Source: Amphiscolops sp. MND2022 (Eukaryota). From it: DNA of 64,000 nt. Positions 2,531-31,046 of the stretch are shown in pieces. The stretch lies in assembly GCA_964187785.1 (NCBI GenBank), contig OZ076409.1, forward strand, positions 50,160,001 to 50,224,000. Reading direction: 5' to 3'. The notes under the pieces are model-generated. The model did not search any database. It saw nothing but the letters and a program-made list of their open reading frames with translations, and was not told the DNA's origin. The number at the start of each line of letters is the position of its first letter. The first letter of the stretch is position 1. A program made the position numbers and the translations under genes.

Positions 2531-2626
2531 CCATGTCACTCACTTTGTTTTCACACGTAAGTTTCTCTAATTTACATTTACGTAATCACCGTTAGTCAAA
2601 TTTCACGCTGAAAATTACGCTAATTA

Positions 2627-3152
2627 CACCTTTTCTAATTTAGATGAACAAAATTTCAAGTTAGATGAATTCACCAATAAGATGTAAGCGTTCCATTCAC
2701 ATGTGCTCGCTGATCGGTGTCAATTTAAATGAATAAATTTCATTTTAGATGAAGATGCGAGTGGCGATAAAACTAAATACGCAACAAAATTTCATTTTAA
2801 TTGGATGAAATTCCATTTCAGATGAATTAATCACCAATTTCCAATAACTTCTTCTTTCGATGAGACTGAGAATTTGGTGCGTTTACCGTAAGCAACTGCT
2901 GCTTGATTCTCGGCCATTCATTTTATTCAAGTAAAATGTAATTTTATTCAATCAAAGTGACAATTTGGAATGACTCTGTTTTAATTGGCTGCCGAGTTTT
3001 GTTAGCTTTCTGGTTTATTCAACTAAAATTAGCTTTCATTCATCTGAATTGGAATTGTGATAGCATTGATTTATATTGATTGTCATTGGCGGAATTTAGA
3101 AGCACGACATTCAACTAATGTGAAATTTTGTTCATCTAAATTAGAAACGGTG
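2627..3152. mobile_element. MITE with ~32-bp TIRs and TA target duplication
   Basis: TA|CACCTTTTCTAATTTAGATGAACAAAATTTCA ... TGAAATTTTGTTCATCTAAATTAGAAACGGTG|TA; internal AGATGAA/TTCATC subrepeats; no coding capacity. Confidence 0.85.
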
Positions 3153-4978
3153 TATAACAATTATCCCGTGACTTAAGTTGATTTGACTGAACGTGTAGTA
3201 ACGTCTCAGCTGCATTCGAAAACAGAACTGCTTCCTATTTCATGCGGAATTTCGTGATTCCGAGCGGATGCCAGAGTTGGATAGCGTCTTTTAGGCAGCT
3301 CAATAAACTTCATTTGAAACAGTGAGAGTTCGCTCCTTAGGCGTTTTCGTGTGAGAGACATTTACATGCATTTTGAAGTTGATTTCAACTTTCATCGCGA
3401 TTCTCTAAATCTATTACGCAATCTTTCTTGAGAAAGATGTTCCCTAATATGTTCGACTTTTATCAAGCAGCTTGAAAGACGATCCTAAGCTTCAGTTTTG
3501 CAAGTTTCATTAAGCAGCAGTTCTTTTTTTGCAAGCAATCACGACGTTATCACTTTTACCGCTATTTCAGAATGAATTACATTATTACCAAAGTAAACTG
3601 CAAACTAGGGTCATCTTCAATCTTCAACGTGCAATTAGAAAAAACGGTCATAATGTCAATGGAGTAGTGCAGAGAGCAAAACGGAAATGAACGTATTTGT
3701 GTCGGTATCGAAATGGGAAAGCTTTCGCATTTAATTTGAAAGTTGGAAAAAGCAGTGCAATTCTACCCCAATTTTTTCCAGCCCAAGAATGCAGATTTTT
3801 TGAGGTATTAGGCAACATTGGAATGTACGCAGGCCAATAACATGTTCAAAAATTGAGCAGTTTCATCCAAGGGACAAATAAAATCTTAAGTAGTGTTGAC
3901 TGACAAAACCAAATGTTCTTCATAGCGCTTTAGACAACAGGATTACTCCACAACTATAAAACTTTCCGAAAACACAGCTGATGTTGAAATGTGAAAATTT
4001 CGTCCAAAAATTTCCAATTACGTTTGCGATCAGAGTCTTGTGAAAACTTAAACAATAGGTTGAACCAATCGCAGAGAATGGAGACTTCAGTGTAAGCCCT
4101 TGTTGAACATGTTTAAATTTTAAAACAATTTTGTAGAGCTCATCCGGAAATTATCATGTCAAAATACATTCGTTTGGATTTCCATACTTAACACGCTTCT
4201 TGAAAGATTCATCAACGTTTTGGCGACAGTTTCAAGCTGTGAAGTTCTGCATGTTATGCATCCAACAATGCTAATTTTGGATGCAGCTAATTTTGCCGCC
4301 CCTTTATTGCAGAGCAATTTCTGTCACGTTTATAAATAAATGCACACTAGAGTCATCTGCTGCGTTTTATTGGAAGGGCTTTGATCACATAAGAAGAATA
4401 TTTGAGAAAAAACCGCGTGATCGTGTCGGTATTGTATTGGGAAATATTTTCAATTTTAATTGCAGTAGTGGACAAGGCAATGTTATTCGTTATTCTACAA
4501 CGTTTACCGCCAGAATCTTTCTGAATTTGATGTTTTCTTGAAAATTACCCTGCCTACATGGCTGCTACATGTGAGACGTTCCTGCAGTCTCAACTAGGGA
4601 AAAGACTGTCATTCCAAATCAAGAAGGAACCGTTGGCGCAATTCTCTATCGAAAGTAGTGTTTTACTCGGAAATGGATTTTATTGAGACCCCAATTTTTC
4701 TCTCACTTCATTTTATCAAACGTTTACCTAGTGATCATTGTGAAGTCCTGGTAACGAAGGTCTTTATCACACCCACTTTAAAACCAAAGAATTTGTCACT
4801 GCAATTCAATTTTTATCTATTTTTTTTTCAACCAATAGAGATAGGTCCCAAGTAAATGCAAACATTTTTGTACGATCGATCACCAAAGCATTAGATTATA
4901 TCAGTTACCGATTATATCAGAATCTCGATTGCCTTTCAAAGGTCAGCATGCGGTTATTTTTTCGGCTTTCACAGAGCT

Positions 4979-9209: not shown

Positions 9210-9516
9210 GGTACCAAATAACATAAGAGCAAATATCATAAAAATGAACATATTTCATTTTATTTTTCATTTAAACGCAGTCCCGTTTAACATAAAAATG
9301 AAATTAGTTTCATATAACATAGAAGTAAAACCGAAAACGCGGTTTAACAATTGAACTCACGAAATTTAATTCTTTAATTTCTTTCTTTTTCAGTGGGTTT
9401 TTTCAAATTGTGAATGCTTTTGACCATTGAAACTTTCTCGTAAGCAATTCAATTTTCATGTTGAATGAAACGCATTTCATTTTTATGTAATTTACTCTTA
9501 TGTTATTTCGGAATCC
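9210..9516. mobile_element. Small MITE-like element with imperfect inverted termini
   Basis: AAATAACATAAGAGCAAATATCATAAAAATGAA (9216) is inverted as TTCATTTTTATGTAATTTACTCTTATGTTATTT (to 9508). Confidence 0.6.
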
Positions 9517-9675
9517 ACGCAACTTTGGCACAACTGTTGACAAGGAAATAGACAATCTCAAGAATGGTAAAATTGCTTTCGTCAATAACTTGAACACTAC
9601 AGCTAGTTGTGTAAACAAGTAACTACGTCTAAAACCGACGTGATCGCATATTCAAGACAACATTCCACCACCGGG

Positions 9676-10006
9676 TGTTCGACGACCGTACCGTGAACGA
9701 AGATGTTGCGGCATTGGTATCCGTTTGTCTATTTCTCTCCTCGTTTTGTTCTAGCAACTTTTCCATCATAGCTTTCAGCATAGACATTTCTGATTGTAAG
9801 TGGCTAAACCTTTCGTCATTTGCTCTCTGAGAATCTATCTCAGGATACGATGAACTTTGTCCCGACTGGGCTTGTTCATTTGTATTTTCATTGTCATTTT
9901 CCATGTTAACGATTCCTTCACCGTAAGTAAGATTCGTTGAATCTACTGAATTAGTGCAAGTTAGTGTTTTCCCGTTTCTCAATGTTATTTGGGAATTAAA
10001 ACTCAA
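9676..10006 (-). CDS. LTR-encoded ORF of element 1, probable Gag N-terminus
   Basis: ITLRNGKT...RFSHLQSEMSMLKAMMEKLLEQNEE...VRSSN, open to the LTR end. Confidence 0.55.
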
Positions 10007-11333
10007 ATGATGAAGAAGAGATGACTATTGCGGATAAGAGTTGAATTGTTGTAAAAGCTGGAGTAAGATACGTATAAAGGATGAGTAATACAAGTACTTG
10101 TACAATGTGGCGTTAGTTATCTTGTGTGTCTCCAAGGTAGCCTTCCACCAGTTCGATGGTAAGACTCAATTCTTACCATCGTTTCGTTCTTATTGGTTAG
10201 TTAGCAAGGTGCTAATTAGCACTTGGTCACTAGACCGGTTGTACCGCATGTCGCTGGAGGGCTACCCAACTGAAATTGCGCGCTAAATCTATTTGAATCA
10301 AATACTATGAATATCTAATGCATTCGAATTAGTTAACTTGTAGTAAGCACAATCTGAGTCACGGCAAGTGTCGAAATCACATCAAAATGGGGTACAATCT
10401 AACGGGGGGTCAAATAAATCAATTTTAAAGAAGTGTGATGTAAAAACGATGAATCAATAGCACTAAGTTAACTGGAGATACGGGATTCAGTAGTTTTGTC
10501 GTTTTGGCATCGTTTTCACTAGTTGATTCTGTTTATGTGGCTGTGGATGCAGGAATGATGAATGAGCTTCGCTCTAGTGTTAAAGCGATCAACTAGATGT
10601 GAAAACGATGAAATGAGTTGTGGGGAGAGCACTGTATATAGTTCTGGAGTACTTACATCGCTTTATCATCGTTATAGGTGAATTTTGATTATAGATGAGA
10701 AAACGATGAAAGATTTCCATCGTTTTTCCATCGTTCTCGATTTCAGCACTATTCTCAGGTTTTAGAAGCGTGAGTGATGCACAAATGATGAAACATATGG
10801 CAACAAGTATTCAATCAAGTAGTTTTCTCTCGTTTTCTGGCGTTCTGGTCACGGTTAAACGATGTAATATGGATGAAACTTGTTAGATTGAGTTGAATTA
10901 TTAGTTCTAGCACCAATAACATCGTTATTTCATCGTTTCGTGTATTTCAAAGAGAGGAGGCTTGTCGCGCTAGTTTCCTCTGAGGCGGGAGTTCCCTAGC
11001 GAGTGTCAATCTCGTCTATTCGTTATGGCGGCCCAGTTTGACCGAGTAACTACTTTCTTTTCTCGTGACAAGCCATTAAATGTAGAATAGCATCATTTGC
11101 TTATTAGCACGATCATGAATTGTGGACAAACGGAACTAGAATGCTCAGTATTAAATAAATAAATAGCTCAAATCTCACTGGGGAAATAGTGGGTTAGGTA
11201 CAAGTAACGTAGGGTTGCTCATAACCATAGGTCTTATTACATGACATCATATTGCCCATATCTAAGTACATAAGACATATTATTTACATTACAGATTTGT
11301 AGTAGATTATATTTCCATCATGCTGGCATGACA
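9676..11333 (-). repeat. 3' LTR of element 1 (1658 bp)
   Basis: Minus strand TGTCATG...CGAACA, abuts the TSD; its first 500 bp repeat at 23482-23981. Confidence 0.85.
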
Positions 11334-11349
11334 CTCCCGGGGGGAGGGA

Positions 11350-12170
11350 TTTGGAAGGGGAGCGCAGGGGCCAAATGTGCAGAGGATGGTTGTCGCAGCG
11401 TAGGCTTTGACATGTTCCTTCGTTGGTCTCAGGGGAATTGCCTTCGTTGGTTCTCAATTCTTTGGTGCCTTCGTTGGTTTTGTCTCATTTGTATCTTCTC
11501 TGGGAAGGAGACATCTTTCATCGGGTTAATATCGGCTGTGAACTTGGTTATATCGGTTAAATTGTGGACGCGTCAGTTCTAGTTCTTGGCCCGTCGAATG
11601 TCCGCGGATCGGCTTGTATGGCTGTCAGAAGTGATTGTAGAGTCTCGTTTGATATCTGGTTTGAATGGCAAATGGTCAGGTCTTGTAAGTGGGTTGACTG
11701 GAGAGTGCATTGAGCATTTGACTGAGAAGCGGATGAACGTGCGGTTGGAATTTCAGAACAAGCGTGAATGAATGTGACGTAATCATATGCGCGGGAGTGT
11801 TGTAGGTAGGCCAACTGTGTGCGAGGAGGAAATGTTCAGTTGTTTTAATAGTCATTGAGTAAATAAAGTAGCCACAATTTCGAGTGCGTCTTTCCGCTGT
11901 GTGTGTAAATCATTCAAATTGCTAACGACGCTGGCAGCTGCATCTAACACTTTGATAAGATTTGCACGGAAATTTTAAGTAAATTTGTCGTTTTGCAAAC
12001 AGTAATTTCCTCTGCTAGTTGGCGGAAAAAAGCAATAATGTTGAATCTGTATTGAAGATTTTTGGCAGATTTTCCATCTTTTGATCTCGGAATTGTTAGA
12101 TGTAGTCGAAACGTTGTTGTTTCTTTTAGTATATGAGCTATTAATCGGGTCCATATCACGGGTGATCAGT
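11350..12170 (-). pseudogene. Decayed extra sense ORF between cargo gene and 3' LTR
   Basis: Frame MDPINSSYTKR...ANLIKVLDAASVVSNLNDLHTQRKDALEIVATLF...QMRQNQRRHQRIENQRRQ with several stops; same position as 54225-54953. Confidence 0.35.
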
Positions 12171-12418
12171 CCATTCCATGTTGTCGATTATTTTGATTGT
12201 CATATCTTCAAACTAATTCCACCGTTATTGTCTGTCTTCATTCGTGTCATGTTTTTTCAGATTGCAATCGTTTTGTCGTTGTCTCATCGTCACGATGTCG
12301 GATAATCGAGAGTTACTTGAGATGAATGTATTGAGTTAGTCATCGAACTTTCATCGTTATTCTATGTTTTGGGGACGTGTATTTTGATGTTACGTTTCAT
12401 TTAGCTGCTGAAGAGGGA

Positions 12419-15400
12419 ATGACGCCGTCTCTGTCTGCAAGTCCAAGAGTTTATGCAGAACTCACTAGTGTAGGACCGATTGCTCCGGCCCAAACTCCAA
12501 TCCCGCAGTATCCGCTTGTGCCAATGTAACCCCAATGTAAGGTGTTTACCGTCTGTTGATCAATTCCGTCGGTTATTCATCGCCAATCAATCACAATGTT
12601 ATTTCAGTATACACGCCTTGGCAACAGTCTTTGGGTTCTCTGTCGTTGGGGTGGTACGATGGTTATCTGCGCAATACAGTGAGAGAAGAACTTGCTAGTG
12701 CCAGTAAGTCAACTTTCATGTGTGATAGCGCTTTCAGCTGTCTCTGCTGTTGCATTCGTGTTGGTCGAATAGGTTTCATCGGTTGCCCATCGTGAATGTG
12801 GTGTCGATGTAGGGACGATGGATCTTGTTATTTTTAGTCCCGCGTGATGTGCAATCCGTTGGAAGACCTGCATTTCGACATTTTGTGTCTGTTGCCTGTG
12901 GACCGGAAGCGTCGGAGTCGTCACGTGATGTAGCGACACAGACGCGTCGCGAGTTTGTGGTGGAGTCGCCTTCCAGGGAGTCAGAGGACATCGAGGCTGT
13001 CTCTGAAGATGAGCAGCGGGAGGCAGATGCGATGATCCTTGATGATGAAGACATTGCCGAGTCATCTGGAAATGTTGCCGCTGTGGGTGAGGCTGGTACT
13101 TCCATCGTCAGTTCATCTGTACAGCCTGGTCCAGTTGTTGTCAGGCGGTCAGTTCGGGCAGGTAAACTAAACAACTTCATCGATCACGTGACTTGCAAGT
13201 TATGTGCTTTTTCGGAATACGTAGTGGACGTGTGTAGTTTTATTTTCAAGTGTGTTTTGAGGTCATTTCTCTATACTGTCTTTTCAGTTGTTTTAATTTT
13301 TCACTCGGTAGAAGTTTTCTTTTAGCTAATTTAACTAAAACGTCGTTTTTACATCAGTGGGGCTATTTTGGATGAATTCCATTTAGTCCTATGTTCAGTT
13401 AAGTAGTTTCATCGTTTGGCCATCTGGTTTTGTTTTAGTCGCTTTGAACAGCATTAGAGCGACCTGGTTTCAACACCCGTATGCCGGAATCTCGCTTGGC
13501 TTCGCTCGTGAGCATCGTTCATCTGATGCTTATGTGCGGTGTCTTTTATGTCGTCGCGATTTGAAGGTTGGCAGTCGCGGGATTTCAACCTATTTGGAAC
13601 ATTGTCGCGGCGTGATCCATCACAAGTTAGACTGTCTGGTGCGTCTGCGACGTGGATTGTTGCTGAGACGTCCAACTGGTGCTGTGATGGGCGTAGTAGA
13701 AGCGGCGCAGATGGTTGAAGAGTTACGTGGGCTGTCAGTGCCTGACGTGGAAGTGTGTCCTGCTTTGTCAGTGCAGGATGTGTTCCGGATTGAGTCAGGA
13801 GGCGGAAGTATCTGGAGTTCAACCGTGCAGGAAGTGCCCGATACAGAACGCAGTCTGAGGATGTTCCTGTGTGTCGTCGTGGACGCGCTTTATTGAGGTG
13901 GTGACGTGACGGGTCTCACCGATTTGTGGGATTCCCTGTCGACGACGGACGTGTCGTACGGAAGTCTTTTCGGTGGCGGATGCCGGAAGGAAGACGTAGT
14001 GGTAATTATATGTTTCATGAATTACCTGTATACATGTTATTACATGTTTGGAATTTCCTAATGGCCTTCATGCTGTGTCTATAGACGGGTAAATGGTCTA
14101 GGTTCTGAGGGGGGGTTTGTGTGCTATTGTCATGAGGCTGATTGGTGTTTTGGAATATGTTTTAACTTTTCCAGGCGCTTCTGATCTTCGGAGTGTGGCC
14201 TTATGTCGTCCGCACACTCGCAGCTTCGCTATGTGGTGAAAATCCTGTTGGACTATACCTGGAGTTGGATAGGAGTGTCGTTCGGTGCTCTGTCAGTGTG
14301 GCTGAGGCAGATGCAGTGCAGGGCGTGGTCTTGTTTGAGGTCGTAGCTACTGGCGACTGGGAGAGGCGAGTGTCTGAGTGGCTCGCGGACTACTGGAGTT
14401 GCGTCGGAGATGACTTTGTCCCAGTGGGGATCAGTTGTGGATGTCTCTCAACTGTTGGAGGGTTGTTAGAAGGAGATGGCGGCCGACGCGGGTTGCAGCT
14501 GAATCCGTTACAATTGAATGCCGTATTGCAGATTATCACAACCGCTGGATTGTCTGTGTTCGTCGGGCAGGACGTTCATGTGGTGATGAACTTTCTTCTG
14601 GGGAAGCTTCGCGACCGTTTGACGGATCCTGTGTTACGCAGTTGTCCTGCTTTGCTGCATGTTAGTGAGTTCATATGTTTGGTTTTGGTTCGGCAAGACT
14701 AATGGAGTTAGGAAGACGTGGTGGGCGTCATGGAAACTTGAAGTGAGGTGTGTAAGTAATGTGTTTTTTATTTCAGTGTGTCGTAGCCGGTGAAATCTCT
14801 AATTGGGAGATTGTCTCTGTCCTGGAGGATTTACATCATTCGTGGGACAGTCTTGTGGCGTTGATACAGCGTCTTGACCAGTTGGGAGGAAGTGCAGATC
14901 CCAATCGGATGGAGTTATTAATCTTGCAGGAATCAGGGCTAGCTTTGAAATTGCATGCTATGGGAGTGGTATACTTTATTGGTTAGATTTTGCTTTTGTT
15001 ACAATGTAATTACGTTTATACAGGTTTTATCGGTTATACGTCGTGTTATTTGAGGGTTCGGGGAAACTGTCTATCGTTATCATCGGAAAAATGTCAGGTG
15101 GCGTGGAAATACCACTTCGAGTCATTTGTTAGGTCTGTACTAGGTGAGGACGTTGTTATACAGTGTACATCGGATTAGCATCTGGTCATTGACGTGTTGT
15201 GTTCTAATCGTTTTGTTTTAGTACTCAAGAACATGAAACAGACTTTCAGTGGAAGTATGCATCGCGGATTGTATACGGTCAATGAATTGCTGAGTACCGT
15301 CCGAGAACTTTGTTTAATGGTTACTCAACCTGCGACAGTACCGGAATCATTTGAGATGCACCGCTGGGCCGGTTTTCAAGTAGCTGATCTACGGTTAAGT

Positions 15401-16180
15401 GCAGCGAGAGAGTCGCAGTTGTATCGGACTTTCGAAGCTCATCGCGCCCGTTATGCTTGTGGGGGGGAGTATCGAGCGGCAGTTACCGTTGTTGAAGAGT
15501 TCCTTATTACCATTGCTATGAACTTGCTACGGATGCCACAGATTTCTGATCAAGTCAATATGGCCCTAGCATGTTGGTGTCCTGATGTGCTGATGCGCGG
15601 AAGTGTCAATGAAATGCAGGAAACCATTGGCTACTTTCTTGAGGCTCTAGAGGGAAATGGAGTTATAGCTGAAGAAGAAAGGATTGCGATGTCTGACTCT
15701 TATGTACAATTTGTCAGAATAATTCCGAGATGACCATACGAGTGAGTATGCATCAGATCTCCATGATAGGGAGCTGTTGCAGTATGGTACTAACGATGCT
15801 AATTTGCGGCGGATGATGCAGCTGTCGTTGTGTTTGAGCGGCAGTGTAATTCAAAGTGTTCAGATGGTCAATATTTGCTTGCCAACTTTATCTTCATAGT
15901 CCCGAGAAGTATTTTCCTGACAATTCTCAGTTGGTGTGAGGCCCGAAATGTGCGGGGTTTACAGAGTATTCCCGATGGCTTAGTGATGGAAAGTAGCGAA
16001 GTGATTGGAAGAGCGGAAGATTTACGAAACGTCACGCTAGGCAGTTTGTGGGATGAAATCGGCAGAGAATCTCCTGATGGTTATCGTGGTGCAGTTTCGG
16101 AGCGGTTGGGTTTCACGTCGGATGGTGGAAGGGCTGCGAGTCCGGAAATTGGTGGAGCGCATCGATTTCGAAAACTATTT
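12419..16180 (+). pseudogene. Antisense spliced cargo gene: acidic N-terminus, BED/TTF-like zinc finger, degenerate hAT-transposase-like body
   Basis: Phase-matched GT-AG exons 12419-12536, 12608-12703, 12838-13161, 13439-14001, 14175-14660, 14777-14968, then probably 15024-15127 and 15222 onward; CLLCRRDLKVGSRGISTYLEHCRGVIHH; EFLITIAMNLLRMPQISDQVNMALACWCPDVL; a few stops and frameshifts. Confidence 0.8.
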
Positions 16181-16406
16181 ATTTCACACTTATTTATTCG
16201 TTGTTTTAACTTTGATTGAGTATGTACACGATTATTAGAGAGTGCGAAGCACTAACATTTGTGTTGGGATTTGGTTATAGTTGTTTGTTTTTATTTTTTT
16301 TCTGTACTTTGTGCGAAAGTTATTAGAGCTTTTCTGAATTGAACATTTAGTTAGAGTTTTCATGCGCTATAAGATAGAAGTTAGTTGGTAGGCGAGCCGA
16401 TGAGGG

Positions 16407-17705
16407 TGATGAGAGGGCGATGGAACATTTCCATCGTTCTTTCATCTGTAATTGCCTTTGTGTGTTATTTTAGTATGAAACCTTTGGATGATAAGTAAAC
16501 GATGAAACATTCTCATCGTTTTTCCATCGCGCGGCTCAGTTGCATGTATTCACAGTGTAGGTTACGAGACTTAGGTAGTTTTCATGTTAGGTTGTTACCA
16601 GTGATTAAGTGATGGGGGAACTCCATCTCTTATACATCGTGACTGTTGTTGTACTCGCGTGCGTGAAAGGTACATGTATTTTGAATTGCATGAGTAGCCT
16701 GAGTTTCATGTTAATTTTTCGGAACGATGTGTACGCGATGAAGTATTTTCATCGTGTAGGCATCGATACAGAGGCTTGAGTGGGTTTTGGCGTTGAAATA
16801 TGTAAAGGTGAGTGGAACGGTGGAGTATATCCATCATTCCATCATCGTTGACTGAGAATTGGTTCATTTGAGGTGGAAATTCTAGAAGCAATGAGTAACC
16901 GATGAAATATTTCCATCGGATTTCCTTCAGGGGGATTTTCGTGCGTTCTTCAGGAGTTGTGTGATACGGTGGAGGTTTTCCATCATTTTGTCATCGTGGC
17001 GATGAGTTTGTTAAGGTTGTTCGACAAACTGTGCGACGATGCGGGTAACGATGAAACATTTTCATCGTTTTTCCATCGTCGACTGATAACTAGTTAATTT
17101 TGCGTTGAGGAGTGGAAGCGATGAACTAACAATGAAAGATTTCCATCGTTTTTTCATCGGCGTGTGTCTGTTGGTGTGTTAGCCTTTGAATAGCAGTTGT
17201 ATCTTTTCGGTGTCCTCAATCAGGGCGGTAATGAACCGAATGTCAACCCAATGCAAAGCCTATGGTCTGTTGACGATTGAGGATTATTCTCTCTTGACTG
17301 AAGGTAATTGTAGAGAGAAGGGAGATGTAGAAGTGATGGAGAAACTCCATCTCTTTTACATCGTGCTGTTACAAGTTTTCAGTCAATTACGGTGGTTTGT
17401 CTAATTGCCACTTAGCTGTTGGTAATCAAGTTTTCCTCAACTGAGATTCGCTAATCAGATGTTGACTCGAGGCAAAGCCTACGAATTATCAACAGACAGG
17501 TCATGGAAACTCAGATTGTTTTGTGGCATGGTCAGAGAGAAGGTTGTGATGAGAAAACGATGGATGTTAACCATCGTTAAGCTCACTTAAATTTTATGTG
17601 TTTCTGGAAGCGATGTGGTGCCGATGGAAATGTTCCATCGGTTTTACATCGTTTCTGGTAATTTCACTGTTTCTTCACGATGGGGTGTTATTTAACCATC
17701 GTTTT
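16407..17705. promoter_or_regulatory. Array of ~13 spaced palindromic sites CGATG-N6-CGATG-N9-CATCG-N6-CATCG
   Basis: Exact geometry at 16725-16765 and 17611-17651, near-exact at 17119-17159; spacer sequences vary while pentamers and spacing are kept. Confidence 0.75.
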
Positions 17706-17744
17706 GATGTGAGGTTGTTGTTTACATGTTGTTTCTATCGTTTT

Positions 17745-19590
17745 CTACTGCAGAGTAGTGTTTGTTTTGCGTAGGGCGCTTCGAGCAGTTGAGATTTCAT
17801 GAATTAGGAAGTCTGAGTAGCGTTTCGGCTGAGGGTTTTCGCGTAGACTATATTTGCTTTTATTTGTCCTCGTTGCTATCAGATTTGGCGTTTCATCATC
17901 GTTCACCTGTTGGGGTGTCTCGGTGTTGGCAGGTTTTGTTGATTGTTCTGGCTGTTTCGTTGTATCTTGAATGATTTCCTGTGGACTTATCTCATCATTT
18001 TCGTTGAATTGCACCTGTGGGGCGTTTCGGGGCAGGTCGTCTATGATTATTTCCGGTTGTGGTGTTAACGACAGTCGGTTCGGTAGTCGATTCAGTGGTC
18101 TGTCGTGTTTGATTGCCTGCCGATAATCTGGCGATTTTAATCGAATGACTCTTTCAACTGGTGTTTTTTTTCATCAGTTTCTGGTTCGTCCGAATTGGAG
18201 TTTAATTTTGTTTGTGTGGGAATGTGGGAATCGAAAATATCAGAATCTTCCGTTTGGTCCGTGTCAGCGTATACTGGTTGGTTACTGATGTCCACGTCTT
18301 CTACAGGAAACTCCGGTTTGAAGATTTTCAGTCGTATCCGGTGAACGCATTGTGTTTTGAATGTTCCTACCTTTCGTATGATGTAGTTACTGTCGGACAG
18401 CACTTTCATCACTTTGAACGGACCTTTCCAGTGGAAGGTCTTGAACTCTTCTTTGCAACCCTGAGAGTCGTATTTGGGGTCAAGTAGGAAAACAAGATCG
18501 TTCACTTTGAGCGGTTGTGCTTTGGCTTTTCTGTCATAGTAAGCCTTGTACTTGTGGTATGCAGCTACTATGTTGTCTGTGTTGTTTCGGTAGATTTCGT
18601 TCATGCGGTTTAGGATCTGATTGATGTCTCCAAACTTGGTGTCGACTCGTCTTTCAGAGTTAGAGTATTTTAGGTCCAAAGCGTTGTATGGAGTGCGTCC
18701 GTGAAAGATTTCAGTTGGTGAACATTTCAGAGAAGTGTGGTACGTTGTGTTATGGGCCATGTTTGCTTTGTCGACATAGCGGTCCCATTGTGGTCTGTCT
18801 ACGTTTACATGTATTTTTAGGATCTTTTTTAGTTTTGCATGACTTCTCTCAACCATGCCTATGGTTTGTGCATGTTTTACAGTTGCATGGGAGATTTCAA
18901 TGCCAATGGCTTTGGTCAGTTGTTGGAATAGTTCGGCGGTGAACACGGACCCTTTGTCAGTCAGGATATGCGTTGGGACGTACGCGTGTTTGGCGAATAC
19001 CGACAGTAGAGCATTAACTACGGATGGTGTATCGGGTTTTCGTAGCGGTACAGCAAACAAATAACGCGAGAATACGTCTATTGCGGTCAGGATATGTGTG
19101 TATCCGTTTGATGCAGGCAGTGGTCCGACTATGTCAACTTCCATCAGATCAGTAGGGCCGTTACACGGGTCGTATATTTTCTGTTACGGTGGGCGGATCT
19201 TTCATTCGTTCGTCAATTTCGATCGCATGCAAGTTTCACAGCTTTCGAGTACTTTTTGTGTTTTCTCAGCAAGACTTGGAGAGTAGTAGCGTTTGCGTAG
19301 TTCATGTAACATCTTTTTAGAACCGAGGTGTCCCTGTACAGGGTTACTGTGTAAGGACCTGAATATTTCTAACATCACTTGATCAGGTACGACGATTTGT
19401 TTATGGGACTCAAGGCCAGTAAGGTGATAAAAGATACGGTACAGAACTCCGTTTACATTTTCAAGGCGTTTTCTGTTTTTGTAAAGTTTTTGGAAAAACG
19501 TTGACATCAAGTTCACAGGGTGGGTCAAAGTTGTTTCGTCAGACAAAATTTTAAACATAAGTTGAATGTCACTATTCGTTTTTTGGGTTA
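17745..19590 (-). pseudogene. Element 1 integrase (HHCC, DDE core, C-terminal tail), frameshifted
   Basis: HSNPVQGHLG..CETC; EVDIVGPLP; LTDKGSVF; GMVERSH; WKGPFKV; tail KYSLRENPQP. Confidence 0.93.
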
Positions 19591-19593
19591 AAA

Positions 19594-21360
19594 TTAGATC
19601 GACTCCCCTGGGGGGCTAACCTCCTTCGTTACCGGGTGTAGTAACGATGTTTTTACGATGAATCTAGTGTACTCTGGTAGGTGAGCGTCAGTCATTAGCT
19701 GGTAGATCTGAGGGGAGCTTGTGTGATCATTCTCAGAGGCCAGTGGTGTGGAGTGTACGTAGTTCATCGTTTTGTCATCGTCACAGGCTGTCGTCGCTAC
19801 GTCAACTGTTCTCATCGGTTTGCCATCGTCGATCGTCACTGTCTCAGAGTTGATCACTTTCATCGGTTTAGCATCGTGTGACCTCTTCTGTCTCAGTGAT
19901 TCGCTAGGAGGGAAGTATTCTGGTTCGTCTTCCTCCTGTTTTGGTGTCTTCGATGCGATTTCGATTTCTATGTGGTGTACTGGAATGGAATCAGTTAATT
20001 TTAGATGGACACGTTCTTCAGGTCGAATTTCCAACCTGGAAAAGTAATCCGCTGCGGGATTCTCTACACCTGGTACATGTGCTAAAATAAAATTAAACTG
20101 AAGCGTCTGGTCGCAAAAATTCCAAAGTGACGGTGGTATGTGTTTGGCCTGAAAGAAACGGGTGAGTGCTTTATTATCTGTCATTACAATTATAGGTTTC
20201 TTTCCCACAGAATGTGGCCGAACTCGTCGAACGCGAAGTGCATGGCTAAAAACTCTTTAGCGTACATTGTTAATGACATCTGTCCACCCTGAAATTTCTT
20301 AGAGCCAAAGGCAACTGGTGCGTACATCTTCAAGCTACCCGATTGTGTTTCAGAGTAGTCTTCTATTAAAAAAACATAACCTGCTGCATGTTCACTCGCG
20401 TCACACATGATTACTAATTGTTTATCCGGAAGGAGAAGTTTCAATGACAGCTTAGTAGCCTTGAGTAAACTTTCGTTAATGTCAAAAATTACATCTTTGT
20501 GACGTTGTTCTAATTTAAAGGTAGTGTCTTTTTTGATTAATTCGTGAAGAACTGCTGTTTTGTCTGCCAACCGGGGAATGTAGGACCTGTAAAAGTTGAC
20601 AAATCCTAAGTACCGTTGGAGAGCTTTAACTGAAGTGGGAGGTTTGAGTTTCTTCAAATAATCAGTTATTCGTTTTTCGATGGGTGCTATTCCAGTGCTA
20701 GAAATTGATTTGCCAAGGTATTCAATTTGTTGTTGACCGAATTCACATTTATTCATGCTGAGTTTTAAACCAGCTTTGGACAACTGCTGAAAAACAATTT
20801 CTAAATTTTCAATCAATTCATCAGGCGTATTTGCTGCGATGCCTATGTCGTCAACATACTGGGCACAGCGGTCCGCTTTGACCAAGGAGTCCAAATACTT
20901 GCGGACTACGCTGGTGAAGGATGAAAGGGAACGATTAAGACCTTGAGCTAGTCTAAGAAAAGCAAAGGTACGGGATCCAAAGTTAAAAGACAACAGTTGG
21001 ATTGACTGCTCATCGGCCATTGGAATGCAGTGGTAGGCCTGGGAACAATCAAGTTTACAGAAATATTTTTTCCCGGCCATGTGTTGAGCAGCGTCTGAAA
21101 CTGTTGTGACTGGGTGGTTGTGTTCTCCGTAATCGTTCTTGATCAGGTGGTTGATTCTCCGCAAGTCAACTAAAATCCTTAGTTTACCACTCGGTTTACG
21201 CTGTACAAATATCGGTGACGAGTATTTGCTGTAAGGGAGAGTAGTTATAATCCCGTACTCCTGCATTGACGCTAATTCTACAAGCAAGTCATCTTTTAGG
21301 TTAGTAGGGGTAGGGAGACTTTGGGAGTACACCGGTTCTTCATGCTGGGGTGTTAATTTT
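19594..21360 (-). pseudogene. Element 1 reverse transcriptase and RNase H
   Basis: SPIFVQRKPSGKLRILVDLR; KLDCSQAY; AQYVDDIGI; MCDASEHAAG; AKEFLA; MTDNKAL; ADYFSR; frameshift near 20200. Confidence 0.95.
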
Positions 21361-21362
21361 AC

Positions 21363-22901
21363 TTAAAAATCAGTGTTCATGCCGATGTCTAAACGATGTC
21401 TAGCAAAAATGGAGTTGTACTTTACCAGCAACTCCTCTACCTGAGCTTGTTGAGACGGAGAAAGAAGTGATTCCTCCCACTTGAAGTTCTGCAGGAACTT
21501 GACTCGTTCTTCATGGGAGCGGGTAGGATCGAGCTTCTCCAGTTCTCTGAGGGCCAGAATCTCATCGAAAATGCGTCTTTCGATCTTGTTGAGTTTATCT
21601 GGTTCACTGCACGTCTCTGGTGTCGGGTACCATTTTGTAGACTTCATCTCTGGGTTCACGAAGAGTTGATTGATCACTGCTGCTGCATCATCTGGGTGAT
21701 CGGTGATCAACTTCAGGTGTTCGACAGGCATCGGTGTGATGTTGGCTGCTTGATGGGGCGTTGGTATTCTGAAGTGTGCCAGGTTGGTGTTGGCTTCAAG
21801 TGTGTACACGTGCTCATTGGGGTTGGTGACCTGAATCATCGTTTTTCCATCGTCTAGGTCAACCACTGCTGGAGACACCAAGAGACACGTTTTGCGCATG
21901 AAAGCTGGAGTCCCTTCTACCGTGCCAGTTGTACGTGATATGTCCGCGTCACTGTGGACCTCAATCAGTACTTGATGGTGGGGAGGGATGGTAGTTCTGT
22001 TGCTGGAATACAAATTAATTAACCCAGTTTTGAACTTTTTATTCGTCTGTTGTCTCACTTGCATTGACATCATATGGTTAGGAAAGTGAACTAGATGATT
22101 TATGATGTCAAGGCTGACAGAATACTTTTCAAAAAATGACATTCCGATCAGGATCGTTCCCATTGTTGGGAGGACCAAAAAGACTTCTTCGAAGACTTTT
22201 CCAGCTATAAAGAAGCGTAAAAGGACTTGTTTTTGAATGGGGACTAAGTTGCCGTTAGCTATCTGAACTTTAAAGTTAGGGGGTGGTAATTCGTCTAGTA
22301 CTGCTTCGGGATGAGCAGCGGTGATTTTGCGTAATTCTGCTTCCGAAAGTGCGCTTTGCACTGCTCCTGTGTCTAAAAGACCTTGGTTTTCGTAGCTGTT
22401 AAACTGGAGGGGAACAAACAACATCTTATCCTTTTTATTTATATGCAATGTGGGACTAAGTACGTGAAATTGATTATTGGTTGCATGTTTTTTAGTTTTG
22501 GTACTACTATTTTTGTCGTTTGCATGTGTTTTACTACTAAGCCGTTTTGTCGATTTGTCATCGGTTGAGAGTCGGTCCGTCTGTTGTAGATGTGAGTACA
22601 TCTCTTTGGCATCGTGCGCAGGCCTCAATGCGTCGTTATGCCAGTTCATCGTTTGTTCATCGAGTGAGTTTTCCAATGGAGTGAATCTGTTGGTGGTTTT
22701 CATCGCCTTCATCGGTTGTTTATCGGGTTTCCGGTATCTTCGCAGATAGACTTCGTCTGCTTTGCTGGAATCACCAGAGGGCTGCCAAGACCTCTGATGA
22801 CGATTGCGTTGAGTTTGTTGAGTCGAGTGAGATTTGGAGTCAGAGTGTGGGTGCGCACTTTGATTGTTCGCGGAGTGAAATTGTGGCTTTACTGAAAATC
22901 C
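21363..22901 (-). pseudogene. Element 1 pol N-terminus: aspartic protease and a dUTPase-like beta region
   Basis: LLDTGAVQS, ILIGMSF; frame open from the gag overlap at 22901 to a premature stop at 21363. Confidence 0.9.
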
Positions 22902-23490
22902 TGTTCTCCTTCTGAGGATGGATCTTCATCGTTGTCTTGTATTTCCATTTGGTTCATGGGGCGCTGTTGTTGTTTTAATTCTCGTCGTCGCTCTTTGTTC
23001 TCTTGTTCATCTGTTCGTTGGTATGGTAGTTGTCCGTAGGGTGTGCTGGTTTGCTTTGGGATTCTTTTTCTGCAGTCCCAGGTTGAGTGGCCAGTATACC
23101 CGCAAATCTGGCATACCAGTTTTGGGTTGTATTTTGGCTTATCTTCATCTTGCCGCTTGGTAGGTTGTATGGCGTCTGGTTTGTTAATGCCATTAGCTTC
23201 ATCTCTTTGGCGTCCTCTGCATTCTTGTTTCGTGTGGCCTTGTTTACCACAGTAGAAGCATTTTCCATCGAATCGTTTAGTGTCTAATTTGGGCTGAGAT
23301 TGGTCGGAGCGTGTGAATTCTCGTTTGGATTTGTTATCAGACATCTGGTTAAATGGCTGATATGTCGCTGCAGGTTGTTGTAGGACGTTCTGATATTGGT
23401 ATTTTCTGAGTAAGTAGGTTTTGATTTCTTCGGGGCTGCTGTCTTCTTTGTTCGCCATTGTCAGCTCTTGTTGGATTTCGATTTCTGGCG
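22889..23490 (-). CDS. Element 1 Gag C-terminus with two CCHC knuckles (N-terminus deleted)
   Basis: CFYCGKQGHTKQEC and CQICGYTGHSTWDC. Confidence 0.9.
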
Positions 23491-23981
23491 TTCTGGTCAC
23501 GGTTAAACGATGTAATATGGATGAAACTTGTTAGATTGAGTTGAATTATTAGTTCTAGCACCAATAACATCGTTATTTCATCGTTTCGTGTATTTCAAAG
23601 AGAGGAGGCTTGTCGCGCTAGTTTCCTCTGAGGCGGGAGTTCCCTAGCGAGTGTCAATCTCGTCTATTCGTTATGGCGGTCCAGTTTGACCGAGTAACTA
23701 CTTTCTTTTCTCGTGACAAGCCATTAAATGTAGAATAGCATCATTTGCTTATTAGCACGGTCATGAATTGCGGACAAACGGAACTAGAATGCTCAGTATT
23801 AAATAAATAAATAGCTCAAATCTCACTGGGGAAATAGTGGGTTAGGTACAAGTAACGTAGGGTTGCTCACAACCATAGGTCTTATTATATGACATCATAT
23901 TGCCCATATCTAAAAACATAAGACATATTATTTACATTACAGATATTTAGTAGATTATATTTCCATCATGCTGGCATGACG
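23482..23981 (-). repeat. Truncated 5' LTR of element 1
   Basis: Matches 10834-11333, then joins directly into mid-gag. Confidence 0.9.
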
Positions 23982-24353
23982 CCGGGACCTCGTATCATTT
24001 TTGAGGTAATGAAAAATACATTGCAAGTAGGCTTTGAGAATGCATAAGAAGTCTTGACAGGTAGAAGACGAGTAACAAAAAAACCCTTACATTGAAGTTG
24101 AACTGAACTTGGGTTCATCTTCATGTGTCAACTTCCAAGATGTTGACTGCTATTTGGTTCGAATATCAAACATTTTTACCAGGTATATTTTATTGCCAAT
24201 TTTATATATGGCTCCTAGTTGCAATATATGTTCAATTTACTTCTAGATAAGGAACAAGGGGACAAATGCAGACATAAACGATTTTCATGAACAATGAATA
24301 GCTGCGATTTTCATTAGAGCAATTGAATGTAAAGGAACGAAGGAAAAACTTAC

Positions 24354-25394: not shown

Positions 25395-26341
25395 TGTTGG
25401 CGCCAGTCAATTGCGAGATCAGAAACTCAAGTTCGAACGTGACTGATGAAGCTTAGAACTCAAAACTCTTAGAAAGTTGAACAAGAGTTTCGTTGGAAAA
25501 TTGCAACTTTTAGCAAAATTAGCCGTGTGTAAAAAACACCACCCCCCTTTTTGAGAAGCTCCTGTTCAATGACCCTGAAACTTAGCACGCATATACTAGA
25601 GGTGCTAACTCAACTTTTCACTCAGAACACTTGACCTCGTATCTCCCTTGGGTTCAGAGCAATTAACACCCAAAGTGACCTAGGTCGGACCCCATGAATT
25701 ACCCAATTTTGATGTATTAATTATTATAAGATTTTCTCATAAGACCTTGAAGGAAATGTAACTCTGTTGAAATTAATGATATTTACATTGTGTAAACATA
25801 CTTTCTAACCCACCTGACCATAATGCCAAAACCACCACATAGTTTATTTACTTAGCCAATAACTTCATTTTATGCTTTAAATGTCAGTTATTTATACCGC
25901 ATATTTCAACTGATATTTGCTTATATTCACTGTAGAATTGTAAACGATATGTATACCAATATTAGAAAGAGATTTTCTCCACTGAATAGCTATAGTCAAG
26001 TTGGGTCTCAGGACCGCGAGACTAATTAATCAACTTCTCAATCTTCACAACTTTTCGCTAGAGTCAGAGCGACTAAGTAGCTACTCTCATAGTTGGAGAG
26101 CCGGAGCGCGTGAAGATACAGTGAGGGAAGTGTGTGCAGGATCACATCGGATCCAAACCAGTGCAAAGAGGAATCGCAGGCGATTCCACGGGTCACATCG
26201 GACCCACCAGTCTAAAGATACAGTCCTTTAAACAAGAAAACCAGGAATTGTTTAGTGACGGTCCACAGCACTAAGCAACGGATCAGGGCGACGTAAAGCT
26301 TGTCAAGCCTCAGCGCAGGATAAGGGCAAGCAGCCGTTACA
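25395..26341 (+). repeat. BEL 5' LTR
   Basis: Direct repeat of 30995-31939. Confidence 0.95.
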
Positions 26342-26438
26342 TTTGGTTCGCCGACCCGGACTAGAAGAAGACGACTCGTTGGTGGACAACTGAGAAGATT
26401 GCCCAAGAAGAACAAGTGTCTGGATCTTGGAGTCTCTG

Positions 26439-26670
26439 ACTACGGTGTCTCTGGGAGTTTGGGCTACTGTGTCTCTGGGAGATTGGGCTACTGTGTCTCT
26501 GGGAGTTTGGGCTACTGTGTCTCTGAGTGATTGGGCTACTGTGTCTCTGGGAGATTGGGCTACTGTGTCTCTGGGAAATTGGGCTACTGTGTCTCTGGGA
26601 GATTGGGATACTGTGTCTCTGGGAGATTGGGCTATTGTGTCTCTGAGAGTTTGGGCTATCGTGACATTGG
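26439..26670 (+). repeat. 24-bp tandem repeat, about 9.5 copies, in the BEL leader
   Basis: Unit GGGCTACTGTGTCTCTGGGAGATT. Confidence 0.95.
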
Positions 26671-26812
26671 GAACTGAGTTCAATCAAGAAGAGAAGAGAT
26701 GGCTCAACCAAAACGATTTGATATCAACAAAGTTGAAAACTTCCTGAAGAACTCTGCAGATAACGCGCAAACGCGGAGTTATTAGAATGCAGCTGTCGAG
26801 CACGGAAAGACC

Positions 26813-29800
26813 GTGAAAGCAATTGATGAAAATCTAGCTAGCAATGATGACGACAAGCAGATAGCAGAGCTACTGTTACGACAAACAAATGCCATCAACA
26901 GGCGAGAACGACTCATTAAGGCAGTCGAAAATGCAATAAAATTCAAGTATCAACCGCTGATACCCGAAATATTCTCAACAGTGAACAAAAAAATAAAAAG
27001 TCGATTTGTTGAGTTGCAGCAGCAAAACTCTAGAATTGGAAAGATGATAATACTGATATCAGCATTGCAAGATGAAAATCAGATACTGAACTACCTGGAT
27101 CTTGAAGGAAAGAAACGTGTTATTGACGAAAGAATTGTACACAACGAAAAGTTGAGCGATAAACGAATTGGAAACGGCGAGGACGCCGAAGCAGATTATG
27201 CAGCAGCATGTCAAGAATTGCTTCAAGAGAGGTCTGACCTCAAACTAAAAATTGAAGCTCCCCTGAAATCAGGAGAAGCTGGAGCCATCTTGCGAAGCCT
27301 TGAGGACGCCGAACAAAGACTAGCAGACGTTCGCGCAAGCGTAGCCGCAGACAAATCAAGTAAAAATGGCACTTCACCACAAAAGGAGCCCGAACCAGAC
27401 GAGGAGCAGAAAGAAGACAATGGTCATAACGCGGGTGACAGCCAAGAGCGAAACAAATAAGCTAGATCATTGCCAATACAAGAATTGAGCATACACTCGC
27501 GAAGTAAAAGAACCAAAAGCAACAAAACGTCTGTGAATTCAAAAACATCAAGTGCAAGACGAGTTCTCGATTTGGAACTAAACGCTTTGAAAGAGCAAGA
27601 AGAATTGCAAAGTCGCCTGGAGAAACTCAGACGCAATGCGGAACAAAATGAAATAGCAGACTTACAAGAAAAGCTGGCCCGCAAGGCCAAAATAGCCGAA
27701 AAAGAAATAGAAAGGACTAAAGTTTCGAGTAGTTGTGGGTCTAGCTTCAGAAGTATCTCACCAGTCGGGACTCCAGATGACAATCTGACGAAAGTCTCAG
27801 ATTGGATGGACAAGACCGAAGAAGCTGAAAACGTGGCATCGCCGAATAAAGTGCCACCAGGTTACCAGCAAACGTCCGTCTCAGCACCAGTGATTACAGT
27901 ACAATTAACGCATGGAGGACAATGCTCCGCGCTAGTGAGGGACTTGAAACCATCAGTGAAACCGACCATATCCACAGAAGCCGCTGTGCGAGGTATTGGA
28001 ATGGAAAGAACAAAGACTGTCATAGGTGCTGGCAGTCAAAGAGCAACAGCACAACCAGAAGTGAAATTCGCCACATCGAAGCCGCCAAGGACCCTTATGG
28101 CAGGCCAAAGCTAGGTAACACCTACGAATGGAGGCAACCCGAATAGTGCGTTTCAAGTACCACAGCTTGCGAACACACAGACGCAGTATATGCCAAGTCA
28201 AGGGCCAAACATAGTGTCAAATGCGAGAGATGACTACAACATCAGATCTAGCTTGCCAAAACTGAAGTTGGCAGAATTTTCAGGTGACCCATTGGAGTGG
28301 CCAGAGTGGTCACAACTATTTCAAGCAACCGTCCACGCAGCAAACATGGACGACAGTGTAAAGATGAATCACCCGAGAACAATGGTCACGGGCAAAGCCA
28401 AGGAGGCGATTGCTGGCCTTGGGTACACAGCGGAGATGTACAATGTGGCGTGGAACGTTCTAGTTCGAAACTTTGGAAAACCTCAGATGGTTGTGAACGC
28501 CCAGTTGAAGCGAATCTATTCCTTTCCTTCGATGAAACCTTATGATGGAGCCGCATTGATCAAGTTTGCAAGAAAAGTGTCGAGTTGTGTGAACGTTTTG
28601 ACACAATTCAACTACGTGGGAGACCTAAACTCAGAAGGAGTTTTAGGCAGTGCCACAAGGAAGTTAACACTGGACATGAAAACGAAGTGGCTCACTTATG
28701 TCAAGCAAATGAACCTGTATCAACCGGGACTCGCTGTGTTCAGTGAATGGCCCAATGATATAGCAGATGTTCAAAATGAATTGCTATTGTATTCGAACCC
28801 AAATGCTGATTGCGCAAAGACGAGCTACAAGGAAAAGGCCGAACGCTCTACGTTTGCCACCTCTGCAGCAAACTCTGCAAATGACAATACGAAAACTCAG
28901 CGAGAGTGTGTGTTGAAAGATGGTCAACATCCAATATGGAAATGCGAAAAGTTCAAGAAGATGAACGTCGAAGAAAGAGGACAAAAGGCGAAAGAACTGA
29001 AGCTGTGCTTCAAATGTTTGTCAGACGCGCATCAGATGAGAAATTGCTCTGGTAGACTCTGCGACGTAGATGGTTGCGGAAAACCTCATCACAGATTGCT
29101 ACACAGATCATACAAGAACGTGGAACAAAAGAAAAATGTTAAAAATATCGACGAGGTCTCTAACCTGTCCTCAATGAGAAGCAGTGGTGTGCTTCCAGTC
29201 GTTCCAGTAACGATAGGGAGTGGGAGCAAAGCTCTGAAAACGTTCGCTTTGTGTGACTCTTGAGCCAGCCTGTCCATTGTGGCCGAGAGCCTGATGAAAA
29301 CGCTAATTCTGACGGGACAGACAGTGGATTTGAATGTTGCAGGGATTCATGGTACCTCAGATATTAGTAGTAAACGACTTCGAGTCAGGATTGGAGATCA
29401 AGACGGAAAGGTCAAAGAAGAAATCATGGCCTATAGTCACCCCAACGTAAATGCAGGAAATCGAACGTACAACCTCAAGAAATTGAAAGAAACATATCCT
29501 CACCTGTCAGTCTTGAAAGACTCAACCATCAACTTGAAAGATGTCAAAGTCATCTTAGGCCAAGATTGCTACCACTTGCATAGAGCAATCGACTTTAGAA
29601 AGTGTGGAAACGCAAAGCCGTGGGCAGTGCGGACAAAATTGGGTTGGATGCTCAGTGGACCCTTGCCTCAGCAAAAAACTGCTAATTTCGCCACTGAAAG
29701 TTTGGTTTTTGCAGATGTGGATCCATTGGTGGATCAGATGAAAACTCGGTCGAGCATGGAAATGTATACTTCCCACTGCAGCGTATCCGAAAAGTCCAAG

Positions 29801-30616
29801 GAAAATACGGAGAACTCACCAGACATATTCGTTGTAGAAAGAAACTGGCAGGAAGTCAGTACTAAACCCCTCCTTTTGGAGATCAAGCAAGTCTGGCAAG
29901 ACAAAATGTACCTAGCTGTGAGTGACCATATGATAGTCGAACAAGACGAAAACATGGGTTTCTCAATTGTAGAAGAAAAGAACGAACATGAAAGTTTTGC
30001 AATTAAACCAAACCTCCGAACCTTGGAAGAATTTACTGTGATGCTTGATTTGGTGAAACAGAATATGGATGTCGCCTCTGTGCGACAGCATGTGAAAGAA
30101 AAGCAATCAACTCAAAAGCAAGCAATTAAGCTCGCTGTCAACACTCTAACACTTGAAGAGGGAAGAAAAGTTTCTCAAATGAACATAGTTGTTGAATTCG
30201 TAAAAGAGTGTCAACTCGAACTTCATCAAGACTCAAGAGGAAAAGCGATTTATCGAAGACACCTCAGTGGTCTGTTGAAACGCAACCAATCGTCTAAAGA
30301 CAACGCAGTCGATGAAATAAAAGCCGTAAAGATGTCAATTTGGAGAAAACGCGATGTTGAGTTGAAAGAAAAACTGCTGGACAAAACCATTCCAAACGAC
30401 AGGGAAAATTGTAACAATTGGTTAGGTAATGGAAATTCGGGAATGGATGCAGTGGCACAAGCTAACGCTAATGCGTACACCAAACCCAAACTGAGCAATG
30501 GCCACCGCAAGCAATTCGAGAAACGAGTATTGAAGTTTGAACATAGCTCAAACCTATTACATGGAAAGTGTTCAATTGACAACTGGCATCCTTTATGCAA
30601 AGATTGTGATAGATGA
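26813..30616 (+). pseudogene. BEL gag-protease polyprotein with in-frame stops
   Basis: Coiled-coil-like N-terminus; LPKLKLAEFSGDPLEWPEW (DUF1759-like); knuckles CFKCLSDAHQMRNC and CDVDGCGKPHHRLLH; protease ALCDS* (stop at the DSG motif); VILGQD, AVRTKLGWMLSGP. Confidence 0.9.
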
Positions 30617-30729
30617 AATTCCAGATGAAATATCGCTAATATAAACGCGATTGGGTCCTTCAAAAGCACAAACAACAACAAGCGCGGAAAATGGGCCTCT
30701 GATAGGGCCGGCTGTATCATGGGACGAAA

Positions 30730-31046
30730 TGATGATGCAACTTCAATTTTTTGGAAAATGGAATAAAGAAGACGTACGACAACTGGGAGTCAATGATTTG
30801 GTTTGGATAGTGGATGAAAATGTGAAAAGAGCGCACTACAAGATGGATAGAGAGTTGGAAGTCTATCATGGAGGTGGTGGGCGAGTGAGATCAGCGCTGG
30901 TGAAAACTGAAGATGGAAAACTGAAACGACCAGTAGTGAAACTGGCACCCATGTTCTACGAAAGTGTTTTTCAGGAGAAAACCAGGGCCGGCAATGTTGG
31001 CGCCAGTCAATTGCGAGATCAGAAACTCAAGTTCAAACGTGACTGA
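30730..31046 (+). pseudogene. BEL integrase C-terminal domain remnant (DUF5641-like)
   Basis: LGVNDLVWIVDEN...GRVRSALVKTEDGKLKRPVVKLAP. Confidence 0.85.

Follow-up and report, generated by a model that had tools for sequence, protein, structure and literature searches.

Does the cluster of spaced CGATG words at 10430–10940 mark the promoter of an LTR retrotransposon, held there for a sequence-specific factor that controls transcription of the element, and what might that factor be? A sequence-only reading of this locus had proposed such control. Here we follow the motif across the window, that is, the whole 64-kb stretch of DNA that was analysed, and we observed that the LTR cluster belongs to a wider pattern, overwhelming in its statistics, that runs through the entire element.

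The most complete LTR site (10693–10733) has exactly the sequence first reported for it (agatg agaaaa cgatg aaagatttc catcg tttttc catcg), a 41-bp dyad with the layout 5-6-5-9-5-6-5 in which two inverted half-sites stand 9 bp apart. Each half-site is a 16-bp bipartite word, CGATG-N6-CGATG, with its pentamers 11 bp apart. GATG-N6-CGATG has 30 exact matches in the 64-kb window against 0.38 expected, and its geometry is strict: these 30 matches occur at a spacer of six, each other spacer from 3 to 12 yields 0–2, and the inner CGATG-CATCG pair has eight occurrences with a spacer of 9 and no more than one with any other spacer from 3 to 15. In the column profile the pentamers are fixed and the spacer is A-rich but variable, and sites are present in both orientations with free flanks and spacers. 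An unbiased spaced-word scan ranked this motif first in the whole element and again when pol/gag or the LTR was scanned separately; the same scan of the BEL element and the left flank returned nothing comparable. Chance origin was rejected on shuffle counts far below those observed, and a simple tandem-repeat satellite on the presence of only 2-copy units of 8–12 bp and of mostly unrelated flanks in the array described below. Because the 11-bp period is fixed, the orientation is not, the pentamers alone are conserved and the whole is restricted to one element, a sequence-specific binder is well supported by the pattern of the letters.

Near matches in the window number 45, and 44 of them, together with all 30 exact matches, lie inside a single Ty3/Gypsy element. 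Within 10340–23470 we counted 42 sites: 7 in the LTR, 1 in 11334–12300, 8 in an antisense cargo gene, 16 in an array at 16380–17720, 5 in 400 bp of the RNase H–integrase linker and 5 in the protease region and gag linker, with 1 more in ~49 kb of flanks; the RT/RNase H core and the integrase core have 0 sites each. Outside the element there is thus at most 1 site in ~50 kb, which is below the shuffle expectation. The array (16400–17660) is non-coding and forms the densest cluster of all, 1.3 kb long and 5–6 kb from the LTR, with ~11 dyads and its 16 half-sites (up to one mismatch) at irregular spacing between unrelated flanks. The linker sites comprise five half-sites at 19645–19966, three of them at an exact 48-bp (16-codon) spacing, and five at 21383–22725, in the protease region and the gag–protease linker. 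The open frames of pol and gag hold 7 exact sites against 0.51 under synonymous codon shuffling, a count reached in 0 of 3000 shuffles, and amino-acid or codon bias was rejected as their source on this test. Since sites appear to have been gained or kept wherever coding constraint permits, the distribution suggests that they were selected for a binder that acts over the length of the element. The 48-bp (16-codon) recurrence is found in both pol linkers (19765–19876 and 22599–22662), where at the protein level the sites read as D-x-K-[PT]-M-like repeats.

The element is Ty3/Gypsy by its Pfam matches, with gag followed by pol in the order PR-RT-RNase H-integrase on the minus strand; RVT_1, RT_RNaseH, Integrase_H2C2 and rve score above the cut-off, and gag-asp_proteas and the zf-CCHC families below it. 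Pol (17748–22925, minus strand) is disrupted by stops and frameshifts, and the 3′ part of gag with its zinc knuckles (zf-CCHC, below cut-off) occupies 22889–23477 on the same strand. The only long direct repeat around this element joins 10830–11332 to 23478–23980 (503 bp, 98%). The right-hand copy (23478–23981, minus strand) is a truncated 5′ LTR holding the first ~500 bp, as judged from its direct continuation into the gag interior. The left-hand LTR (10369–11333, minus strand, 965 bp, termini TGTC...GACA) is established by duplication over ~10830–11333; we infer the rest (10369–10829), 461 bp at its 3′ side that have no second copy within the window, from the TG...CA termini and the adjacent PBS-like sequence. 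It would be both the 3′ LTR of the main element and the 5′ LTR of a truncated downstream copy. The PBS-like sequence (10351–10366, minus strand), two bases past the LTR end, matches the tRNA-His 3′ end without the usual TGG, and 12 of 13 bases equal a His-type PBS core quoted in the literature (PMC4724089). The polypurine tract position before the LTR holds a 5-base purine run only, on the sense strand.

Beyond the PBS lie a leader (10007–10350, minus strand) with three palindromes or hairpins (10089–10102, 10154–10181, 10209–10222) and a gag-like 5′ fragment of the downstream copy (9676–10006, minus strand), which has no Pfam match and is probably gag by its position after PBS and leader. The 'LTR ORF start' that had been placed at 10006 is in fact a TTG codon in this fragment, outside the LTR, the first in-frame ATG being at 9904. 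The whole 14.3-kb unit is bordered by CCGGG, at 9671–9675 and 23982–23986, a possible target-site duplication of which the left copy may alternatively be native gag sequence. Of the two junctions (9671–9682 and 23975–23986), the left one, within the gag-like frame, resembles the true LTR end, hinting at integration via a cryptic end of tandem or circular cDNA.

Within the LTR, seven sites with up to one mismatch fall in 10430–10940, where 200 dinucleotide shuffles gave 0.04 on average and never more than 1. The clustering noticed by the sequence-only reading is borne out by these counts, and its location in the LTR is proven for the sites at 10860 and 10920, both within the duplicated stretch (10830–11332) and repeated in the second LTR copy at 23508 and 23568; the other listed sites would belong to the LTR by its termini and the PBS-like sequence. 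Besides the dyad, the half-sites lie at 10436–10451 (plus strand, 1 mismatch, putative U5), 10497–10512 (minus, 2 mismatches), 10545–10560 (plus, 2), 10595–10610 (plus, 1, directly downstream of the putative transcription start), 10656–10671 (minus, perfect, directly upstream of the TATA box), 10775–10790 (plus, 2), 10860–10875 (plus, 1) and 10920–10935 (minus, perfect). Among those listed earlier, the half-sites near 10436, 10596, 10656 and 10920 are exact to GATG-N6-CGATG, but those at 10860 and 10775 are imperfect, with 1 and 2 mismatches to CGATG-N6-CGATG, and the two at 10497 and 10545 had been missed.

The LTR sense strand has only one TATA[AT]A (10640), and with an Inr-like hexamer 26 nt downstream it forms a putative core promoter (10611–10640, minus strand), by pattern match only, with a putative start at ~10614. 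Counted from this predicted start, the sites fall into five groups on the upstream side, at −321 to −42, and four on the downstream side, at +4 to +178; the first 393 bp of the LTR have zero motif sites. A promoter position of the LTR sites is plausible, since five groups would thus stand 42–321 bp upstream of the start, and to this extent the proposed promoter or leader placement finds partial support. A purely promoter reading is at odds with the rest of the distribution: the LTR has 7 of the 42 sites, the densest cluster is kilobases away and the pol linkers hold 10. The U5 terminus itself (10369–10384) reads as a variant half-site, GATG-N6-CGACA on the minus strand, and the CGACA variant reappears at 10497 and 12274. 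A 20-bp inverted repeat with a 3-base indel (10508–10527/10588–10610) connects a pair of sites in the LTR and is base-paired when the sense strand is folded, suggesting a spread of sites through inverted duplication.

The cargo gene (12813–16170, plus strand) lies antisense between pol and the LTR and has at least five exons. Its predicted introns (13162–13438, 14002–14174, 14661–14776 and 14982–15221) have GT-AG borders, matching phases and homolog exons on their side. The gene is a member of a multicopy family and is broken in the present copy, by a stop at 13894–13896 and frameshifts near 15720 and 15900; the zinc-finger exon (13441–13893) is an open frame. This exon encodes a BED-like zinc finger, C-x2-C...H-x4-H (13540–13620, plus strand), whose ligands are invariant in all three aligned sequences. 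In the ESM Atlas the finger matches zf-BED and zf-C2H2_12 clusters at 0.92, with zf-BED on 12% of the members of one cluster; neither the finger nor any other cargo piece has a match in Pfam or among PDB sequences. The C-terminal part returned nothing from Pfam, PDB sequence, Foldseek-PDB (E ≤ 0.001), BFVD or the Atlas. The hAT transposase Hermes is its best structural match, though a weak one that stays under the caution level of the tool and that unrelated helical chains approach to within 1 Z unit; it suggests a hAT origin for the cargo. When the DDE triad was mapped by eye from hAT motifs, the first Asp was present in 10 of 13 aligned rows, the second-position Asp in 0, and the Glu was unconserved, so that on this mapping the protein would have lost catalysis.

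No terminal inverted repeats with an 8-bp duplication surround the cargo (starts at 10300–13450 against ends at 16150–18150). The scan gave eight weak candidates with 4 mismatches each, seven of which were the motif itself, and an intact nested hAT transposon was rejected as no pair had under 4 total mismatches. PF04195 (TRP28) has no match in the cargo pieces or the relatives scanned. The cargo locus was not found in viral, metagenome or prokaryote contigs, nor the exact dyad in viral contigs, nor a full-length cargo protein among longer sequences, the last being weak evidence; an RT search gave three loci at 25% identity with 0 motif copies.

These features suggest to us that the antisense zinc-finger cargo protein probably binds the motif copies. 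We put a little short of even confidence in the fuller proposal that the element has captured a hAT-derived protein without catalytic activity, and that this protein binds the DNA of its own element and controls transcription from the LTR. The motif sites would be double-stranded DNA targets of the element's own antisense cargo protein, a derivative of a hAT transposase that retained its BED-type zinc finger and lost the catalytic triad. Two fingers would contact the two CGATG pentamers, one helical turn apart, and a dyad would offer four. Because introns would otherwise be lost in the RNA intermediate, the gene would be held antisense, so that they survive reverse transcription. The LTR sites around the TATA box would be bound, with the 3′ array and the pol-linker sites as backup, and binding would mark the family's copies and raise or protect their transcription in trans. 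We infer cargo protein–motif binding, promoter position and direction of effect alike, and the predicted sites at +4 and +54 could equally repress. DNA demethylation of the VANC type is unsupported, since CpG observed/expected is 0.8–1.0 outside the element and few of the LTR-pair substitutions are of CpG type (only 1 of 9 and 3 of 26). Against the proposal stand the covariation of dyad arm spacers, unexpected from DNA binding alone, the weakness of the Hermes match, the lack of any Pfam or PDB-sequence match for the cargo, and plus-strand frames in the second Gypsy region of the window that do not resemble the cargo significantly. More tentatively, and with somewhat less confidence, we suggest that a Gypsy clade, probably living in an animal, took over a hAT transposase that no longer catalyses and made it a sequence-specific regulator of its own, giving family-specific self-recognition. 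Each family would keep a diverged antisense copy, with LTR, non-coding DNA and pol linkers rewritten for a private motif, and self-recognition would take the form of trans-activation or anti-silencing, via class II to class I transfer.

Arrays of host-factor sites are common in LTR elements, as with Su(Hw) in gypsy and the intragenic enhancers of Ty1, and this precedent favours a reading in which a host transcription or insulator factor, such as a host BED or other CGAT-reading protein, binds the sites and the cargo is unrelated to them. Host BED proteins such as BEAF-32B and DREF do read CGATA-type words, and the cargo–motif link is circumstantial; yet we consider this unlikely, given the near absence of sites outside the element, with zero in the BEL element and in the second Gypsy region of the window, and an element that has a candidate finger of its own. 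It is somewhat more doubtful that the cargo binds the sites for a job other than transcription, whether to coat the cDNA or the pre-integration complex, to serve nuclear import, to guide the choice of target or to insulate. That 35 of the 42 sites are non-LTR and run along 13 kb would suit such a role, as would the variant half-site at the U5 end, and nuclear import has been proposed for plant antisense ORFs (PMC7264820). Speaking for transcription instead, the single TATA box is bracketed by LTR sites, and the tested transposon self-binders (VANC, TnpA and AtMu1) act on transcription in the accounts available.

The symmetry of the dyads invites a different reading, in which they are selected because they form hairpins with a 19-bp stem and a 3-nt loop, in RNA or in single-stranded DNA, for packaging, reverse transcription or small RNA. 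Two-sided spacer changes within dyads number 20 against 8.6 in shuffles (0 of 500), and 40 of 72 spacer pairs are Watson–Crick against 26.7 in arm swaps (P ~1e-4, 12 dyads); the excess was also present in sets of 11 and 8 dyads, and 5 doubtful dyads of 17 were left out. Moreover, LTR 10369–10960 folds with a z of −3.5 on the sense strand and −0.7 on the other, and the 11-nt period equals one A-form turn. We nevertheless judge hairpin selection improbable: G-U pairs are not in excess on either strand, pairing does not extend past 41 bp, the array folds alike on both strands (z of −7.6 and −7.2), the majority of sites stand alone without a partner and in either orientation, and the spacers of opposite-strand neighbours are no more alike than random pairs (identity 2.18/6 against 2.39/6). 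Arm symmetry is explicable by fold-back duplication without selection, and birth of the dyads by fold-back copying is favoured over hairpin selection on the missing G-U bias, the equal folding of the array strands and the many singles. A known structured RNA was rejected by an Rfam scan, in which nothing came near the gathering score. Least probable by our reckoning is a hAT DNA transposon inserted in the retroelement whose leftover subterminal repeats, now neutral, are the motifs. Clustered BED-binding repeats have been described at hAT ends, and the large array does lie directly after the cargo 3′ end; however, the cargo is without a surrounding terminal inverted repeat and 8-bp duplication, and passive insertion is insufficient given sites in both LTR copies and in frame in the pol linkers.

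Retroelement-encoded regulators that act on repeated LTR elements are familiar from foamy virus Tas and HTLV Tax/HBZ, where an antisense gene adjoins the 3′ LTR. The present element is like these in having a candidate regulator of its own, repeated LTR sites and an antisense gene near the 3′ LTR; unlike it, those retroviruses have env, encode no protein of transposase descent and do not have response elements scattered along pol. In layout the closest comparison is with plant Retand/Tat Ty3/Gypsy elements, which have antisense ORFs and repeat arrays between pol and the 3′ LTR (PMC11963269; PMC7264820). As with the Retand TRP28 elements, the region from pol to the 3′ LTR is long and contains an antisense ORF predicted to be DNA-binding and family-specific arrays. 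For the Retand ORFs a regulatory role has been proposed, and the available text of these two papers states their origin and function to be unknown and derivation from other transposons to be unsupported (PMC11963269; PMC7264820). Our cargo differs in having no PF04195 and in being intron-containing and hAT/BED-like, and the arrays here are not tandem repeats as in Retand; they are spaced motifs with unrelated flanks that recur in the LTR and pol linkers.

In the mode of action envisaged for the cargo protein, the comparison is with VANDAL elements, whose VANC proteins bind motifs that are particular to each family and accumulate in the elements that encode them (PMC5735166). Both systems combine an element-encoded protein, here a candidate, with a short family-specific motif dense in the encoding element (here within the window), and VANDAL motifs differ between families (PMC5735166). 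VANDAL, however, is a Mutator-like DNA transposon, whereas the element here is class I; VANC motifs are described as mostly same-orientation and non-coding, whereas ours are bipartite, in both orientations and also in coding linkers; and VANC is reported to act via DNA demethylation, whereas the flanks here have little CpG depletion. Arabidopsis transposases and their non-catalytic derivatives have likewise been found to activate cognate copies (10.64898/2026.08.24.746577). The cargo would be like Spm TnpA, a transposase-derived, catalytically degenerate (here predicted) and motif-based regulator of cognate copies, but TnpA-type regulators, as described, serve DNA transposons of their own superfamily or the host, whereas here a class II protein would serve a class I element. 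In the available part of the Arabidopsis text the words 'LTR' and 'retrotransposon' have 0 occurrences (10.64898/2026.08.24.746577). As for the finger itself, the BED fingers of Hermes recognise subterminal repeats of 4 bp within AT-rich flanks and bind a quasi-palindrome cooperatively (PMC10368747), and the BEAF-32B finger binds CGATA clusters and activates promoters (PMC5021357, PMC12549938). The motif here likewise consists of clustered 4–5-bp words, CGATG being one base apart from the BEAF CGATA; in contrast, BEAF sites are described without fixed spacing and ours have a strict 11-bp and 9-bp geometry, and Hermes is a hAT element, whereas no hAT ends were found around the cargo. By analogy, then, the layout resembles that of Retand and the mode of action would be that of VANC or TnpA, but the element appears to belong to neither group.

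Antisense extra genes are common in LTR retrotransposons, and reviews, as far as their available text goes, call their origin and function unknown. The present element suggests where such a gene may come from, a hAT transposase, and what it may bind, a bipartite motif of 16 bp with 44 copies and strict geometry, and the idea that antisense genes regulate their own element becomes testable. The retrotransposon would then regulate itself in a manner that has to date been demonstrated for plant DNA transposons and complex retroviruses alone. If true, the proposal would extend VANC/TnpA-style self-recognition to retrotransposons outside plants, and the diverged cargo family would supply a ready-made set of BED fingers, each paired with its motif. 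In the open-access literature covered, which included PMC6431247 and PMC9911081, we found no description of an LTR retrotransposon that combines an antisense gene of hAT or BED descent with a matching motif throughout the element.

A second Gypsy region (50000–64000) offers a comparison within the window. Its pol (60143–64000) is on the minus strand and it has plus-strand frames of its own (56800–59900), together with a palindromic motif, GAC-N5-GTC, that occurs 13 times in the a-priori range 53300–64000 against ~2.2 expected; over a wider, post-hoc range the count is 17 against 2.3 shuffled and beats the best palindromic pair in 40 of 40 shuffles. The two motifs are nearly exclusive, GAC-N5-GTC occurring once in the first element and CGATG-N6-CGATG 0 times in the second region, and a private motif of this kind fits, at the level of sequence, family-specific systems. 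In the pol open frames GAC-N5-GTC occurs 3 times against 0.6 (45 of 3000 shuffles reach 3), and there is none inside the region's plus-strand frames. These frames have no significant similarity to the cargo, and homology of the two antisense cargos, collinear by eye, was rejected after failing every statistical test. A gag-like frame follows a probable LTR at 53316–50428, by eye much as at 10369–9676. The window also holds a BEL/Pao element (25395–31939; DUF1759 and DUF5641; LTRs of 947 bp, 96.8%) with a 24-bp tandem array (26392–26696) and zero motif copies, as well as MITE-like inverted-repeat elements at 9216–9508, 2625–3154 and 47459–48252. LTR elements are dense, a run of 200 N lies at 32429–32628, and flank GC is 0.35–0.37; a published acoel genome is reported to have a GC of 36.7% and to be half LTR (PMC9911081).
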